Virus genome (UHGV): UHGV-0170512
DNA from: a virus
Length of the DNA stretch: 11,320 nt
Reading direction: 5' to 3' (one strand)
How positions within the stretch are numbered: the stretch's first letter is position 1; each line of letters begins with the position of its first letter. A program made the position numbers and the translations under genes. Of this stretch, positions 1-10,789 are shown in pieces. Under the pieces are notes generated by a model that ran no database searches, was not told the DNA's origin, and saw nothing but the letters and a program-made list of their open reading frames with translations.

Positions 1-758
1 CCACAGTGTGGACAGGGCCAGTACCAGCGACGGCGATCACCACGGTTATAGAGCGACAGGATCCCCGTGGTTGGTGGAGCCTCATGCGGTGAAGTCCGTC
101 GCCATTTCACATCCTTCACATCCCTGCCGGGGGAACTCTCCACCAGCGTCATACCACTGGACATAAATGTGGTGGTACGTTTTGAGGCAAGAGAGAAAGC
201 ATCCCCCTCGCCATCAATATCTTCCGGAAAACGGTCATAATCCGTCAGCGCGACGCATTTATAATCTGATGAGGACATGATATTGACTGACGGCCAGCCG
301 ATTTTCAGGTAGTTACCAGCAAGGAATGTTCTGTCATAAACGTTGTTGTCATTTTTGTTCGGACTCAGGCGACTGACCACTTCCGGGCTGACGCGAAACG
401 TTCTGGCGAGTCGTTTTTTGGAGTGTTCGCGGGCTTTTTCCTCCGTCATCTGAATGATCAGCATATCAGCAGGATCGCAAATCACGTTGTAAATCACCCA
501 GCCGTCAATCAGGCCGATAGTCTTGCCGGTTCGTGCCGGGCCAACAAATATCACTGCGTCGTATTCACGCGAGGCCAGGCAGTTCATCGGCTCAATAACA
601 TACGGTGCCACCAGCGGATCCCACGGGACTGAGTTCCCTGCCCCCATGGGCACCCGCATATACTGAGCAACGGCATCAGCAACCCGCATTCGTCTCGGTG
701 CGCGAAGGATATAACCTGAATCGGTTCGTGCTGCCTTTGCGGTTTCCTGATTCAGCAT
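1..758 (-). CDS. Phage terminase large subunit (lambda gpA-like), N-terminal part; gene continues past the window start
   Basis: Minus-strand frame is open from ATG at 758-756 to the window edge; absent from the ORF track because no stop lies inside the window. My hand translation starts MLNQETAKAARTDSGYILRAPRR, contains a Walker-A-like GPARTGKT, and ends WYWPCPHC at the edge, resembling lambda gpA (..ACPHCG). The ATG overlaps the stop of the upstream small-subunit gene by one base (TAATG junction). Confidence 0.8.
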   Translation of the reverse strand, partial: MLNQETAKAARTDSGYILRAPRRMRVADAVAQYMRVPMGAGNSVPWDPLVAPYVIEPMNCLASREYDAVIFVGPARTGKTIGLIDGWVIYNVICDPADMLIIQMTEEKAREHSKKRLARTFRVSPEVVSRLSPNKNDNNVYDRTFLAGNYLKIGWPSVNIMSSSDYKCVALTDYDRFPEDIDGEGDAFSLASKRTTTFMSSGMTLVESSPGRDVKDVKWRRTSPHEAPPTTGILSLYNRGDRRRWYWPCPHC

Positions 759-1249
759 TACTCCTCCTGCTGTAATTCCTCCTCATCATCCGCACCTGCT
801 TCGGTCACCCGCAGGGCTATCTGATCGCGCAGATCATCAATAATGGACTGAACACGGCTCACAGCGGCAGGCTGCAGACCGCAGTCACGTTCCAGAATAT
901 CCGGTAATGTCTCCAGCACCTGCACGACCGCTTTTGCCCAGATGGCAAACTCCCGTCTGACATCACTGGCCGGAATGAGTTGTGCCGTTTCCTGTTCGAA
1001 CTTAAGACGCTCACGTTCAGACTGATACCAGGCTTTGCGTTCATGTGGATCCATTTCGCCCTCAGCAACCGGCGGTGGTAACCCCATAAATTCAGTCAGA
1101 ATATCGGTCAACCGGTATAGCTTGAGTTTGTCATGTCCACCAGCGGGACGAATGTTTTTCAGTCTTGCCACGACAGTCTGGCGGTGCAGACCAGATAAAG
1201 CCGCCAGTTGATTAATATTCAGCACCAGGTTTTTCAACTCATGATCCAT
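758..1249 (-). CDS. Phage terminase small subunit (Nu1/NohA-like, N-terminal HTH)
   Basis: 163-aa ORF from the track. N-terminus MDHELKNLVLNINQLAALSGLHRQTV has the helix-turn-helix layout of Nu1-type small terminases; acidic C-terminus; directly precedes and overlaps the large-subunit gene. Confidence 0.7.
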   Translation of the reverse strand: MDHELKNLVLNINQLAALSGLHRQTVVARLKNIRPAGGHDKLKLYRLTDILTEFMGLPPPVAEGEMDPHERKAWYQSERERLKFEQETAQLIPASDVRREFAIWAKAVVQVLETLPDILERDCGLQPAAVSRVQSIIDDLRDQIALRVTEAGADDEEELQQEE

Positions 1250-1863
1250 ATTTCCTCCGGAGAGCTTTAAACATGCATCGTGCGAACAACTTTAAGAAAA
1301 CGCGTTCGATGTCGAACAAAAAACACTCAATTCGACATGCAAAAAACAAATAACCATTAATAATCAATAAGATGCAAAGATGATGGTGGCCGATAAAAAT
1401 GCAAAAACTAGCCTTTTTCCGCGACGCTCCCGCCCCGTGGCAGGCCACCCCACCGGGAGGACCCGTCAGCCTGACAGCCATGACGAACGTCTGATACAGC
1501 GCCTTGCATGAATGGCATCGGGATAATCCAGAAAGGAATAGCATCGTGCCCACAAGAATCTGTGTGAGTATCCTGTTTCTTCCACCCCCGCACAGGACTG
1601 GCGAGCATGAGGGACAAACCCGCGAACCATAAACGCGGTAAAAACCCGGTGTGCATCGTTTTTGATTATTCCCGCACACTCTCGCAGAAGGAGTTCCCCG
1701 TCGGGCTACGGTCTCTGTTAATACGGGAATACGGCGACGATACAGCGCATGATGTGTCAGGCTTGAATACCTTTATCCGTTAAAAGGGATATCAGTTAAG
1801 TTATCCCGTGCAGGGTATAAGCCATTATCAAGCCCCCCGTAGATAGGCTTTGTAATGACATCT
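1250..1863. other. ~600 bp noncoding spacer between rha and the terminase genes, with ATGCAAA(A)AC direct repeats and short palindromes; candidate terminase-binding/packaging-control region or ncRNA
   Basis: Only Cys-rich, overlapping, Met-poor ORFs in the track (1239..1679, 1408..1656), judged spurious. ATGCAAAAAC at 1337-1346 and 1399-1408 plus ATGCAAAG at 1372-1379; near-palindrome GTTCGATGTCGAAC around 1303-1316 with TTCGACAT inverted copy at 1331-1338. Confidence 0.3.
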
Positions 1864-2388
1864 TCAATTAATCAGCAGTTCAGGCTGTGTCACCTGCAAG
1901 ATGTATTCATGCTCGACAGCCAGGACACGCTTCTCTTTCTTCCGTTCGTTCATTAACCGACTGCCGATCGTACCTTTCAGCTTTGAGCGTGTTTCTTTGG
2001 TGGCGTAGCGGTGCTGCATTTCTTCGCCAATTGCCATGCGGCGGCTCAGTTGCTCTGCCATCCAGTTGAATGCTGCGATATAGCTCTCCTTGATTGCCGC
2101 AGCAGCTTTCCCGGTGAACCCCATCACAACCATGATCCAGCCATCTTTCGTCAGGCTGTACATCGGGCGAACCTTGCCCTGCTCATCGATATAATCAGCC
2201 GACGCAAAATTGCGTTGGCTAAACTCACGCGAGCAATCAGCCTTAACCTGCTCGATTTTCCTGAGAACATCACCGTGTCGCTTGCCGAAGTACTTGGCAA
2301 TTTTTCTGGATGTGGTAACGACCTCTCCGTTTTTGGCTTGCACCATTTCTCGGAAGTCGAAGGCTGGAATAACTGAATGATTATTCAT
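1864..2388 (-). CDS. rha: Rha-family phage regulatory protein
   Basis: Track ORF 1864..2424 (GTG start); I prefer the internal ATG at 2388-2386 (MNNHSVIPAFDF...). Contains TTSRKIAKYFGKRHGDVLRKIEQ, the signature region of the Phage_pRha family as I recall it. The start choice between 2388 and 2424 is unresolved. Confidence 0.65.
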   Translation of the reverse strand: MNNHSVIPAFDFREMVQAKNGEVVTTSRKIAKYFGKRHGDVLRKIEQVKADCSREFSQRNFASADYIDEQGKVRPMYSLTKDGWIMVVMGFTGKAAAAIKESYIAAFNWMAEQLSRRMAIGEEMQHRYATKETRSKLKGTIGSRLMNERKKEKRVLAVEHEYILQVTQPELLIN

Positions 2389-2442
2389 AGCGTCTTTACC
2401 TTTTAGAAAGTGAGCCTGTCTCACAGAAAAGCCGCCCGAGAG

Positions 2443-5453: not shown

Positions 5454-5487
5454 GGAGTTTACTCACATCTGACAAAATCAATATAAA

Positions 5488-5509
5488 CAGCCCCTCCGGA
5501 GAGGGGCTG
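5488..5509 (-). terminator. GC hairpin, likely Rho-independent terminator for minus-strand transcription (possibly also stops the convergent plus-strand ORF)
   Basis: CAGCCCCTC-CGGA-GAGGGGCTG, 9-bp perfect stem; on the minus strand it is followed by TTTATATTGATTTTG. On the plus strand it sits 35 nt after the 5118..5453 stop but has no U-tract. Confidence 0.4.
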
Positions 5510-5900
5510 GAGAGTGGCGCTATGTGCCATTGCATGGTGCCGGGTGCCTCCCGGTGAATTCAGTACCAGCACCTGAATCCGCGATTATCCCATATACCTA
5601 CTCGCTGATTGCCCCTCCGCACAGGGGGATTCACCATGCCAGTTTCTTTTAACAAACTCCCCGCAAACCAGACAACAGTCAACCGCCTGAATTGTGAAGT
5701 ATTTAAAAATTTCTCCCGCTAACTGATACCCGGCTAACAGTCTGGCGTTTTCTTTTTCAGCAACGGAAAAGCAACAACCACCACACCTGCCACCAGCACA
5801 CCGTCAGCCAGCACTGACATTATCCGGCTGCTGCAATGCCATTCACAAAAACAGTAAGCAATCACTTTTTACCGTAACAGGTGATAATCCAGATATGTAT

Positions 5901-6364: not shown

Positions 6365-6441
6365 TGGCGCGTTGTACTGGATTCGAACCACTGACCGATT
6401 GCTTAGAAGGCAATTGCTCTGTCCTGCTGAGCTAACAACGC
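6365..6441 (-). tRNA. tRNA-Arg (anticodon UCU)
   Basis: Minus strand GCGTTGTTAGCTCAGCAGGACAGAGCAATTGCCTTCTAAGCAATCGGTCAGTGGTTCGAATCCAGTACAACGCGCCA: 7-bp acceptor stem, D arm GCTC/GAGC, anticodon loop CTTCTAA, T loop TTCGAAT, encoded CCA. One G:G mismatch in the T stem. Confidence 0.8.
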
Positions 6442-6454
6442 AGAATACCGATAA

Positions 6455-6531
6455 TGGACCACCATCGGGGACCCGAACTCCGCGCAACCAGCTTCGAAAG
6501 CTGGCGCTCTTTCCTGATGAGCTAATGGCGG
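6455..6531 (-). tRNA. tRNA-Arg (anticodon UCG)
   Basis: Minus strand CCGCCATTAGCTCATCAGGAAAGAGCGCCAGCTTTCGAAGCTGGTTGCGCGGAGTTCGGGTCCCCGATGGTGGTCCA: acceptor stem with one G:U pair, perfect anticodon stem CCAGC/GCTGG, loop TTTCGAA, encoded CCA. Non-canonical T loop TTCGGGT (G at position 58) and one A:C mismatch in the T stem. Confidence 0.7.
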
Positions 6532-6538
6532 TATGTGA

Positions 6539-6614
6539 TGGTGGCCCTTGCTGGATTTGAACCAGCGACCTGGCGATTATGAGTCGCTCGCTCTCACCAC
6601 TGAGCTAAAGGGCC
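6539..6614 (-). tRNA. tRNA with CAU anticodon (Ile2-type, ileX-like, or Met)
   Basis: Minus strand GGCCCTTTAGCTCAGTGGTGAGAGCGAGCGACTCATAATCGCCAGGTCGCTGGTTCAAATCCAGCAAGGGCCACCA: perfect acceptor and T stems, anticodon loop CTCATAA; closely resembles the E. coli ileX tRNA as I recall it. Confidence 0.85.
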
Positions 6615-10397: not shown

Positions 10398-10553
10398 TTA
10401 CTCCTCAGGTTCGTAAGCTGTGAAGACAGCGACCTCCGTCTGGCCGGTTCGGATTCGTACCTCGCAGAGGTCTTTCCTCGTTACCAGTGCCGTCACTATG
10501 ACGGTTAAACAGATGACGATCAGGGCGATTAACATCGCCTTTTGCTGCTTCAT
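10398..10553 (-). CDS. hok: Hok-family type I toxin (HokD/RelF-like), 51 aa
   Basis: Hand-translated, below the ORF-track size cutoff: MKQQKAMLIALIVICLTVIVTALVTRKDLCEVRIRTGQTEVAVFTAYEPEE. Single TM segment and Hok/Gef signature; SD AGGAGAAG 6 nt upstream of the ATG. Confidence 0.85.
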   Translation of the reverse strand: MKQQKAMLIALIVICLTVIVTALVTRKDLCEVRIRTGQTEVAVFTAYEPEE

Positions 10554-10789
10554 AGCCTGCTTCTCCTTGACCTTTCGGTCCGTAAGAGGCTAATCTCTAT
10601 GTGTCGCATAGATATGGCCTCAGATTAATGTTAAGCGTCTTGCAGGACGCGTAATGTTAACTGGGGCTTTTCTCTATCTGCCTTTTGGTGTTCATGCCTG
10701 AGGCAGATAGCCTCAAGCACCCGCAGCAATTCTACTTAACTCACGTCACCTCGCCAATATGAAATCAATCAGAAAGGTGATCCATAAAA

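Follow-up and report, generated by a model that had tools for sequence, protein, structure and literature searches.

Positions 1250 to 1464 of the analysed DNA (UHGV virus genome UHGV-0170512; 11,320 nucleotides, hereafter the window) are very probably the lambda-type cohesive-end (cos) site of a prophage, that is, its DNA cutting and packaging signal. Judged by its sequence anatomy, this lambda-type site appears to be complete, comprising cosQ, cosN, I2 and cosB. It takes up most of the ~600 bp before terS and is an ordinary example of a known signal. The initial annotation had listed cosB-like R and IHF sites beside terS as its first option, which was correct in kind, since an entire cos can be assigned here. 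Our reading is based on the anatomy of the sequence, the ends of deposited phage genomes, co-variation between TerS and cosB and the positional conservation of an IHF site, while binding, bending, nicking and termination at this particular cos would follow the lambda paradigm by analogy.

The window derives from a lambdoid prophage of E. coli whose late genes are encoded on the minus strand. The small terminase gene terS, of the DUF1441 family and Gifsy-2/Fels-1 type, is located at 758..1249 (minus strand), with a ribosome-binding site GGAGG read from the sequence at 1254..1258 (minus strand), 5 nt upstream of the ATG. The N-terminal part of terL, of the lambda gpA type, occupies 3..758 (minus strand; Pfam GpA_ATPase PF05876, E = 3e-64) and is truncated by the window edge, while in phage PhiR40_1 the full terL comes after terS. 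Both genes, recognised through DUF1441/phrog_141 and PF05876, adjoin the cos site and are transcribed away from cosN. On the side opposite terS, the spacer is bounded by rha (1864-2424, minus strand).

The predicted nicking site cosN lies at 1419..1439 (minus strand) and aligns to lambda ACG/GGGCGGCGACCT/CGCGG. Its predicted 12-nt 5' cohesive end, GGGCGGGAGCGT, is found at 1424-1435 (minus strand), with the left chromosome end beginning at 1435 and reading downward. If compared to the lambda end GGGCGGCGACCT, positions 1-6 (the left half, GGGCGG) are the same, while positions 7, 8, 9 and 11 differ; in both phages the nicks are flanked by the same CG dinucleotides, such that ACG/.../CGCGG is conserved. 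The predicted packaging-termination signal cosQ, GGGTCCT, is located at 1458..1464 (minus strand). It is the same heptamer as in lambda, is conserved in relatives from many genera and lies 22 nt before the nick, compared to 23 nt in lambda. The distance from the nick to the start of terS is likewise close to that of lambda (187 vs 191 bp).

Deposited phage genomes agree with this placement. The record of phage cdtI begins exactly at the predicted nick, with 32 of its first 33 nt matching the window, and the record of phage Tritos (type C) both ends and begins exactly there, with all 33 matching. These record ends may have been experimentally determined or set by lambda analogy. GGGCGGGAGCGT is the predicted cohesive end common to the window, cdtI and Tritos. 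The record of mEp460_4F5 breaks 5 nt off the predicted nick and is without 3 nt of cosN, giving imprecise support only. The record ends of mEp460 and Ayreon were rejected as physical ends, because in both cases terS had simply been chosen as an arbitrary opening point. A lambda-like 12-nt end with a variable right half is also found in Gifsy-1, mEp213 and LLS-type lambdoid phages, which have the same TerS family, and for mEp213 a putative cos GGGCGGCGCGCT has been reported (PMC12315714). N15 resembles the window in its lambda-like cosQ and cosN and its gpA-type terminase, whereas its cosB consists of a single R3 without an IHF site (PMC4669245) and that of the window is of the complex form, with three candidate repeats plus an IHF-consensus site.

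Within cosB, the order of the predicted elements is that of lambda: R3, IHF site, inverted R2 and direct R1, and the likeness extends to the A/T-tract I2 and the gpA-type TerL. This layout has been described for lambda, 21, phi80 and Gifsy-1 (PMC4669245, PMC9026076, PMC4856287), with the order R3-I1-R2-R1 reported for Gifsy-1 (PMC9026076). Two cosB types can be compared among relatives, type A, to which the close relatives of the window belong, and type B. Their sequences part at position 34 from the nick, and the divergent stretch extends no further than position ~400. The candidate TerS binding repeat R1, GTTCGACATCGAAC, is located at 1304..1317 (minus strand), with an exact copy of the core TTCGACATC at 1308-1316. 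It is invariant in 20 type-A relatives and corresponds in position to R1 (GTTCAYCATC) of 20 other cosB types. The palindrome GTTCGATGTCGAAC, which had been pointed out previously, is indeed present at 1304-1317 and coincides with this repeat. R2 is an inverted copy of R1 at 1331..1339 (plus strand), reading TTCGACATG on the plus and CATGTCGAA on the minus strand, such that R1 and R2 clearly pair as inverted repeats (TTCGACATC / TTCGACATG). The homologue of this R2 in the family is (A/G)ATGTCGAA, at positions 95-108 from the nick. The nick-proximal candidate TerS repeat R3, CCACCATCATC, lies at 1379..1389 (minus strand), belongs to the CATCATC class and is invariant within type A. Since it has only CATC in common with R1 and R2, its assignment rests on positional homology with relatives, in which an HRQT helix in TerS is always accompanied by a CATCATC/CATCACC run at positions 44-58. 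A test for an 8-mer triple of R3, inverted R2 and R1 was not significant for the window's own cosB type (p = 0.99); of the 21 diverse cosB types, 14 scored better than shuffles at p <= 0.05.

The IHF-consensus site I1, AATCAATAAGATG, is situated between R3 and R2 at 1362..1374 (plus strand) and agrees with WATCAANNNNTTR at 12 of 13 positions. One-mismatch matches of this kind, to which I1 itself belongs, are as frequent in the window as expected by chance (12 vs 11.6). The position of the site is conserved: 16 of the 21 diverse cosB types have the consensus at position 62-64 from the nick and on the same strand (a perfect match in 7), with only two other hits elsewhere in the first 130 bp. Furthermore, a block GTTGTTCGCACGATGCATGTTTAAA at 1266..1290 (minus strand) is conserved in cosB types A and B, with hardly any variation inside each type and near identity between the two, and it holds a fourth, R1-like element, GTTGTTCGCAC. 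We can only infer a role for this block. In most relatives only 129-138 bp separate the nick from terS, whose start codon directly adjoins R1, whereas the window type is ~57 bp longer, and these extra base pairs include the additional R1-like block.

If this cos works as in lambda, TerS dimers would bind R3, the inverted R2 and R1 through their N-terminal helix-turn-helix domains during lytic growth, while host IHF would bind I1 between R3 and R2 and bend the DNA such that R3 faces R2. The A/T-tract I2 would provide a static bend between cosB and cosN, and the whole assembly would position the gpA-type TerL for nicks in cosN that are staggered by 12 bp. Nicking would leave 5'-GGGCGGGAGCGT as the cohesive end and place the left chromosome end at window position 1435. 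Packaging would then proceed toward terS and terL and end once cosQ (GGGTCCT) and cosN are recognised in the following cos of the concatemer. The components differ from those of lambda in several aspects. The R repeats of lambda are of the CGTTTCC type, those of the window of the CATCATC/TTCGACATC type; R2 and R1 are ~47 bp apart in lambda and ~22-27 bp in the window; and the small terminase of lambda is Nu1, while the TerS of the window is a DUF1441 protein without detectable sequence similarity to Nu1. A BLASTP comparison of TerS with lambda Nu1 gave no alignment at E <= 100, and by Pfam TerS is not part of the Phage_Nu1 family, as DUF1441 is the sole hit above cut-off and HTH_30 a weak, sub-threshold one.

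TerS itself matches Pfam DUF1441 (PF07278) with E = 4.6e-44 and 150.3 bits (gathering cut-off 35.1) and phrog_141, annotated as 'terminase small subunit', with E = 2.7e-77, while a weak match to phrog_57 was obtained as well (E = 8e-9). All 120 listed homologues, of 690 found, have PF07278, and the identity of TerS is 62% to mEp213, 48% to Gifsy-2 and 44% to Fels-1. Structural modelling suggests a helix-turn-helix DNA-binding domain in the N-terminal ~65 residues: the AlphaFold2 model (pLDDT 78.5) shows a strand-helix-helix-beta-hairpin-helix arrangement at residues 9-55. The top Foldseek hits of this model were the winged-helix proteins BmrR, MerR, RacA and BldC together with 6hn7, at non-significant values (best E = 0.07), and a sequence search of TerS against solved structures delivered no significant match.

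It is this N-terminal part of TerS that varies together with cosB. The C-terminal ~100 residues are the same in TerS alleles A and B, all differences falling into the N-terminal ~65. Among 73 loci, 34 of 34 carry TerS allele A with cosB allele A and 39 of 39 carry B with B, with no recombinants, while the flanks of type A and B loci are 97-100% identical. A comparable arrangement, in which cosB and the N-terminal domain of TerS form a specificity cassette, has been described for lambda and 21 (PMC4669245). As in that pair, the differences between our alleles are limited to cosB and the first ~65-70 terS codons, while cosQ, cosN, I2 and the TerL-binding part of TerS are common to both. In contrast to lambda and 21, types A and B both retain the HRQT helix, and their R cores differ only slightly (CATCATC vs CATCACC). 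In Enterobacterales at large, a different recognition helix in TerS is accompanied by different R repeats. Among 21 cosB types, the HRQT helix goes with R3/R2/R1 = CATCATC / GATGTCGA / GTTCAYCATC, the NRN(M/L)VARR helix with GTGCAGCAGCA / TTGCTGCA / GTGCAGCG and the HRDTVKKR helix with GGCGGCAGCATG. Covariation across relatives had been proposed as a check by the initial annotation: the cosB repeats do co-vary with TerS, but the repeats that do so are of the CATCATC/TTCGACATC type and not the ATGCAAA motifs it had in mind.

These motifs are nevertheless real. On the plus strand ATGCAAAAA is present at 1399-1407 (copy 1) and 1337-1345 (copy 3) and ATGCAAAGA at 1372-1380 (copy 2), all as direct repeats, and the spacing of ~30 bp noted before was measured as 35 and 27 bp. 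Copy 1 is held by the I2-like segment CGCGGAAAAAGGCTAGTTTTTGCATTTTTATCGG (1390..1423, minus strand; positions 13-46 from the nick), which comprises an A5 and a T5 tract and recalls lambda I2, an AT-rich, statically bent and essential segment at bp 18-50 (PMC4856287). Positions 1-34 from the nick are the same in cosB types A and B, and the I2-like segment is conserved across TerS specificity types, with close likeness in Citrobacter, Serratia and Klebsiella relatives.

One could argue that the three ATGCAAA(A)AC direct repeats themselves are the TerS (R) binding sites of cosB, as had been suggested. They are grouped within 71 bp inside cosB; copy 2 abuts R3 and copy 3 overlaps R2 by 3 nt; and copy 1 is invariant in type A. 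However, all three are direct, whereas R2 is inverted in the layout of the family. Copy 3 usually has the core GTAT instead of GCAT among 20 distinct close (type-A) relatives, the window carrying the minority allele, and the core of copy 2 is polymorphic among close relatives as well. Copy 1 belongs to an I2 block that is common to phages with different TerS DNA-binding domains, and it is absent from type B (GAAAT there), although the TerS of type B has the same HRQT helix. In addition, the motif is not enriched: 8 matches with up to one mismatch were counted in the whole window where 5.6 are expected, a number equalled by 41 of 200 shuffles, and the three clustered copies fall into an A-skewed stretch of 34-39% GC. 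We thus consider it improbable that they are R sites. Copy 1 is a part of the conserved I2, and copies 2 and 3, each a T-tract plus GCAT, border on or overlap R3 and R2 without being the recognition repeats themselves.

The repeats and the palindrome might instead form an operator or promoter that is bound by Rha or another phage regulator and controls terS and the late genes; an operator for such a regulator had been among the initial suggestions. In favour of this reading, terS lies directly downstream of the region and a Rha-family gene upstream, and 14-bp palindromes are typical of dimeric regulators. However, a scan of 1150-1950 detected no sigma-70-like promoter, and the same cos architecture occurs in PhiR40_1, mEp460 and cdtI without adjacent rha. 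Sequence variation follows the DNA-binding domain of TerS, not the upstream gene. Furthermore, transcription of the late genes in lambdoid phages reads through from the Q-dependent late promoter. A terminator scan returned only the R1 palindrome with a T-run, no more than expected by chance. The cos reading accounts for every conserved element, no positive evidence favours an operator for Rha, and we give the operator reading next to no probability.

Identified as a cos, the region mainly allows an annotation clean-up, as the cos site and the predicted genome ends can now be placed for a group of prophages that is very common in E. coli. The current understanding of such sites is unchallenged by this finding. 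The comparative result is of modest use for packaging biology: it supplies candidate R3-I1-R2-R1 sites for the whole DUF1441 (Gifsy/Fels-1-type) small terminase family and reveals putative specificity cassettes that occur naturally (types A, B and cdtI-type), with common cosN and TerL. These cassettes could be used for testing TerS-cosB recognition, for predicting cross-packaging of prophages and satellites and for designing cosmid-like vectors.

The spacer had been called non-coding, and we agree, as no convincing gene was found between terS and rha. Its length is not as unusual as assumed, since in lambda, too, ~190 bp separate the left end from Nu1, and more non-coding DNA lies upstream of cosQ. 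A decayed gene or a structured RNA, either a 5' leader or an sRNA, can be envisioned instead. Open reading frames of 58-146 codons do exist in the region and are annotated in some phage records. However, in an E. coli locus with 99% identity, PGAP called no CDS in this stretch. In the ORF at 1607-1783 (plus strand), substitutions are distributed 12:10:9 over the three codon positions, without third-position bias, and 7 of 27 distinct copies carry a premature stop or frameshift. The ORF at 1408-1656 (minus strand) was rejected as a gene because codon periodicity is absent. Two minus-strand ORFs cross the cos cleavage site, and the several ORFs annotated across cos, including one PHROG family of unknown function, are probably spurious. 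At the RNA level, predicted folding of the cosB transcript is no stronger than that of shuffled sequences (z = +0.46), and Rfam at gathering and permissive thresholds found nothing credible in 1240-1900. A structured RNA is thus unlikely for the cos part. What speaks in favour of an RNA lies next to it, in a highly conserved module at 1571-1857, where minus-strand RNA folding reaches z = -2.3 (plus strand z = 0.0) and a hairpin shows compensatory changes; yet its 25 aligned copies average 94% column identity, so that covariation is readable only at this terminal hairpin. For the spacer as a whole, we regard structured RNA or gene decay as very unlikely.

The module itself (1571..1857) is non-coding, separate from the cos site and present in 4041 of 5426 complete E. 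coli genomes, or about three quarters. Over 1631-1810 the mismatch amounts to only 1-4%, and no coding signature was detected in it. It ends in a terminator-like hairpin (1830..1853) just past the rha stop codon. Compensatory changes affect three stem pairs of this hairpin, which occurs as two alleles, the common one being AAAGCCACTC-loop-GAGTGGCTTTTGT; the allele of the window is weakened, and in phage Ayreon the hairpin is annotated as a terminator. The module was also considered as a remnant of a longer Rha gene and rejected, as, at the locus with a Rha CDS listed in the matching stretch, the two overlap by only ~20 nt at the 3' end of the gene. Whatever the terminase type, it is positioned at the junction of lysis/moron genes and packaging genes. 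Tentatively, this ~290-bp element may act in cis as DNA or may encode an undescribed prophage RNA (a convergent sRNA or a late-transcript leader element), a possibility that we rate well below even chances; alternatively, it might merely be a conserved recombination 'linker' between modules. No homology of the module to lambda was found, and K-12 has only a 108-bp fragment of it, in the unannotated borD-ybcV spacer of DLP12. The module is also found in Stx phages with a different terminase, and YDC107_1 carries two copies of it.

The window comes from a lambdoid prophage of E. coli in which the minus strand carries the late genes. Within the window, a spacer at 1250–1863 separates terS (758–1249, minus), whose product, the small terminase TerS, matches Pfam DUF1441 (4.6e-44) and phrog_141 'terminase small subunit' (2.7e-77), from a Rha-family regulator ORF (1864–2424, minus). 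A truncated ORF for TerL, a large terminase of the lambda gpA type (PF05876, 3e-64), is found at 3–758 (minus). The Rha-family protein (186 aa) matches positions 1–170 only of the 268-position PHROG 518 profile and may be a short or truncated form; in relatives, KilA-N or other genes occupy the place of rha. The spacer was matched in 4332 of 5426 complete E. coli genomes, and most of its length in 773.

As the initial annotation had proposed, this long spacer is non-coding. In one 99% identical chromosome, PGAP left the interval from the DUF1441 gene to its upstream neighbour without any annotated gene. A 58-codon ORF at 1607–1783 (plus) shows substitutions of 12:10:9 across codon positions, and of 27 distinct copies six are interrupted by a premature stop and a seventh by a frameshift, while codon periodicity is absent from the minus-strand ORFs across the cos cleavage site. 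Among the latter, the ORF at 1408–1656, which likewise lacks periodicity and spans cosQ and cosN, has a match to PHROG 17397, a family of unknown function (9e-48); spurious ORFs called on conserved cos DNA probably gave rise to this family. At the same place, phage Ayreon carries a 'putative late gene regulator' and PhiR40_1 a 'hypothetical protein'. A decayed gene is unlikely, since the ORFs have no coding signature.

The part from 1250 to 1464 is very probably a cos site of lambda type that belongs with the Gifsy/mEp213/cdtI group and carries a specificity allele. Such a site is an ordinary feature, expected at this position. The minus strand from 1464 to 1419 reads GGGTCCTCCCGGTGGGGTGGCCTGCCACGGGGCGGGAGCGTCGCGG and can be aligned to the lambda right-end/left-end junction (ACGGGTCCTTTCCGGTGATCCGACAGGTTACG/GGGCGGCGACCT/CGCGG). 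This alignment places cosQ (GGGTCCT) at 1458–1464, cosN at 1419–1439 and a predicted 12-nt cohesive end, GGGCGGGAGCGT, at 1424–1435, all on the minus strand. The cohesive end's left half and the flanking CG dinucleotides are the same as in lambda, whereas positions 7, 8, 9 and 11 differ; natural variation in the half with these positions has been reported among lambda-like phages (PMC4669245). In lambda Nu1 starts at 191, and the terS start codon lies 187 bp from the predicted nick (window 1435). Deposited phage genomes give independent support for this nick: the cdtI record starts exactly there, the Tritos record both ends and starts there, and their first 33 nt are identical to the window at 32 and 33 positions, respectively. 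In the linear record of mEp460_4F5 (LR595868.1, loci L007/L008), the break falls 5 nt upstream of the predicted nick; the record reads GGGCGGGAGCGCGG and is without 3 nt of cosN that all other copies have. Misassembly at the cohesive ends is the probable cause. The record ends of mEp460 and Ayreon are uninformative as physical ends, since these records were merely opened at terS. For mEp213, a putative cos, GGGCGGCGCGCT, has been given in the literature (PMC12315714).

For Gifsy-1, an R3-I1-R2-R1 arrangement of cosB, i.e., candidate TerS repeats plus an IHF site, has already been stated (PMC9026076). We compared 66 loci, one genome per species, which yielded 21 clearly different cosB sequences. 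Counted from the nick, their common layout begins with the 12-nt end and a conserved CGCGGAAAACGGCTAGTTTTT(T)GCATTTTAT block, followed by R3 at positions ~44–58, an IHF-like TTGAT core at ~62–76, R2 as an inverted copy of the repeat at ~95–108 and R1 as a direct copy at ~118–134. In the common form the nick is 129–138 bp from terS and R1 adjoins the terS ATG; most non-E. coli relatives (L095–L136) have this distance, with R1 (GTTCAYCATC) overlapping the ATG. In a test with 8-mers for R3, an inverted R2 and a direct R1, 14 of the 21 types scored above shuffles (p ≤ 0.05). The IHF consensus (at most one mismatch) occurred on the same strand at position 62–64 in 16 types, seven times perfectly, compared with only two matches elsewhere in the first 130 bp across all 21. 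Furthermore, the repeat sequence varies along with the TerS recognition helix: HRQT helices accompany (T)CATCA(T/C)C, GATGTCGA and GTTCAYCATC, NRN(M/L)VARR helices GTGCAGCAGCA, TTGCTGCA and GTGCAGCG, and the HRDTVKKR helix GGCGGCAGCATG. Within the HRQT class, residue 13 is mostly Asn with CATCATC and mostly Ser with CATCACC, while one CATCATC member has Thr.

Among 80 IMG/VR loci with close TerS relatives, two classes, type A (that of the window) and type B, share identical C-terminal ~100 residues of TerS, all differences lying in the N-terminal ~65, a predicted helix-turn-helix domain. At the DNA level, both are 97–100% identical from upstream of cosQ through position 33 past the predicted nick, but only 47–87% per 30-bp block from ~34 to ~400, a stretch that takes in cosB together with ~70 codons at the start of terS; beyond, identity returns to 97–100% until the last ~30 bp of terS (90%). 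The cosB type was linked with the TerS type in 73 of 73 loci (34 A-A, 39 B-B). In cdtI and Tritos, cosB and the TerS DNA-binding domain are each of a third kind and lie behind near-identical cosN and I2, an A/T-tract segment. The packaging specificity of lambda and that of phage 21 are arranged likewise (PMC4669245).

In the window we assign R3 to CCACCATCATC (1379–1389, minus), I1 to the IHF-consensus match AATCAATAAGATG (1362–1374, plus), R2 to TTCGACATG (1331–1339, plus) and R1 to GTTCGACATCGAAC with the exact core TTCGACATC (1304–1317, minus). While R1 and R2 form a clear inverted pair, R3 has just CATC in common with this pair, and the window's cosB type does not pass the triple test (p = 0.99); its assignment thus rests on positional homology with relatives. 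Overall, we consider the individual R-site assignments reasonably likely. On the plus strand R3 reads GATGATGGTGG, containing GATGGTGG, one mismatch from the Chi octamer GCTGGTGG, a likeness that is probably coincidental. Between R1 and terS, types A and B are ~57 bp longer; the extra DNA includes a conserved block, GTTGTTCGCACGATGCATGTTTAAA (1266–1290), which contains an R1-like element and has a putative role. This second R1-like block suggests a local duplication in the E. coli types.

The initial annotation had pointed to iterated ATGCAAA(A)AC motifs and a palindrome. Both are present: ATGCAAAAA at 1337–1345 and 1399–1407, ATGCAAAGA at 1372–1380 and the palindrome GTTCGATGTCGAAC at 1304–1317, which is R1 itself. 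The motif is statistically weak: the window contains 8 matches (at most one mismatch) where 5.6 would be expected, a number also reached in 41 of 200 shuffles, and the cluster lies in A-skewed DNA of 34–39% GC. The copy at 1399–1407 sits in an I2-like block that phages keep even when their TerS DNA-binding domains differ, so this copy cannot be a TerS specificity element. In its A5 and T5 tracts the block resembles lambda I2, a statically bent, AT-rich segment that an early step of packaging requires (PMC4856287). The copy at 1372–1380 adjoins R3 and has a variable core; that at 1337–1345 shares three bases with R2, and its core is usually GTAT, not GCAT, among 20 distinct type-A relatives, so the window holds a minority allele. 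Since all three copies are direct whereas the family R2 is inverted, the motif is not an R element. The general idea of cosB-like R/IHF sites was thus right, but not their identification with ATGCAAA. An operator for Rha or another regulator had also been envisioned; however, a scan of 1150–1950 found no promoter-like site, and the same cos occurs without an adjoining rha gene. Similarly, a structured RNA finds no backing in the cos part, where the fold z-score is +0.46 and Rfam gives no credible match.

Judged by sequence, TerS is not a relative of lambda Nu1: BLASTP between both found nothing, and a sequence search of solved structures gave no significant match. Within the DUF1441 family it is 48% identical to the TerS of Gifsy-2, 44% to that of Fels-1, 62% to mEp213 and mEp043, and 42% to cdtI. 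An AlphaFold2 model (pLDDT 78.5) predicts strand-helix-helix-beta-hairpin-helix for residues 9–55, followed by long helices. The best Foldseek matches were the winged-helix proteins MerR, BmrR, RacA and BldC as well as 6hn7, an entry from the TerS-hijacking study. Because all have E ≥ 0.07, a winged-helix fold is plausible, yet not established.

The remaining conserved DNA, at 1571–1857, is a non-coding unit separate from cos. It was found in 4041 of 5426 E. coli genomes, with mismatches of only 1–4% over 1631–1810, and also in Stx phages with another terminase type; phage YDC107_1 has two copies, and a fragment lies in the unannotated borD-ybcV spacer of K-12 DLP12. As RNA, only its minus strand, which has the late transcript's sense, is better folded than shuffles (z = −2.3; plus strand 0.0). 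At the rha-proximal end, directly after the rha stop codon, a terminator-like hairpin (1830–1853) shows compensatory changes at three stem pairs, the only place where covariation is readable in the aligned copies (mean column identity 94%). Of its two stem alleles, AAAGCCACTC-loop-GAGTGGCTTTTGT is common, while that of the window is weakened by a stem mismatch; in one copy, PhiR40_1, the loop is inverted (CCTACA versus TGTAGG; L001:3372-3666 and L038:886-1180 compared). The Ayreon record annotates the same hairpin as a terminator. Two scenarios could be envisioned: the unit may combine a terminator with a conserved 'linker' between modules, or it may be an RNA or cis element not yet described. 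Outside the spacer, Rfam matched STnc100 sRNA (132 bits) and sok antitoxin RNA (108 bits), the latter implying a hok/sok-type toxin locus, and three tRNA genes (Arg-TCT, Arg-TCG and one with a CAT anticodon) lie elsewhere in the prophage; the window spans for these RNAs are 5479–5668, 10551–10722 and 6365–6614, all minus.
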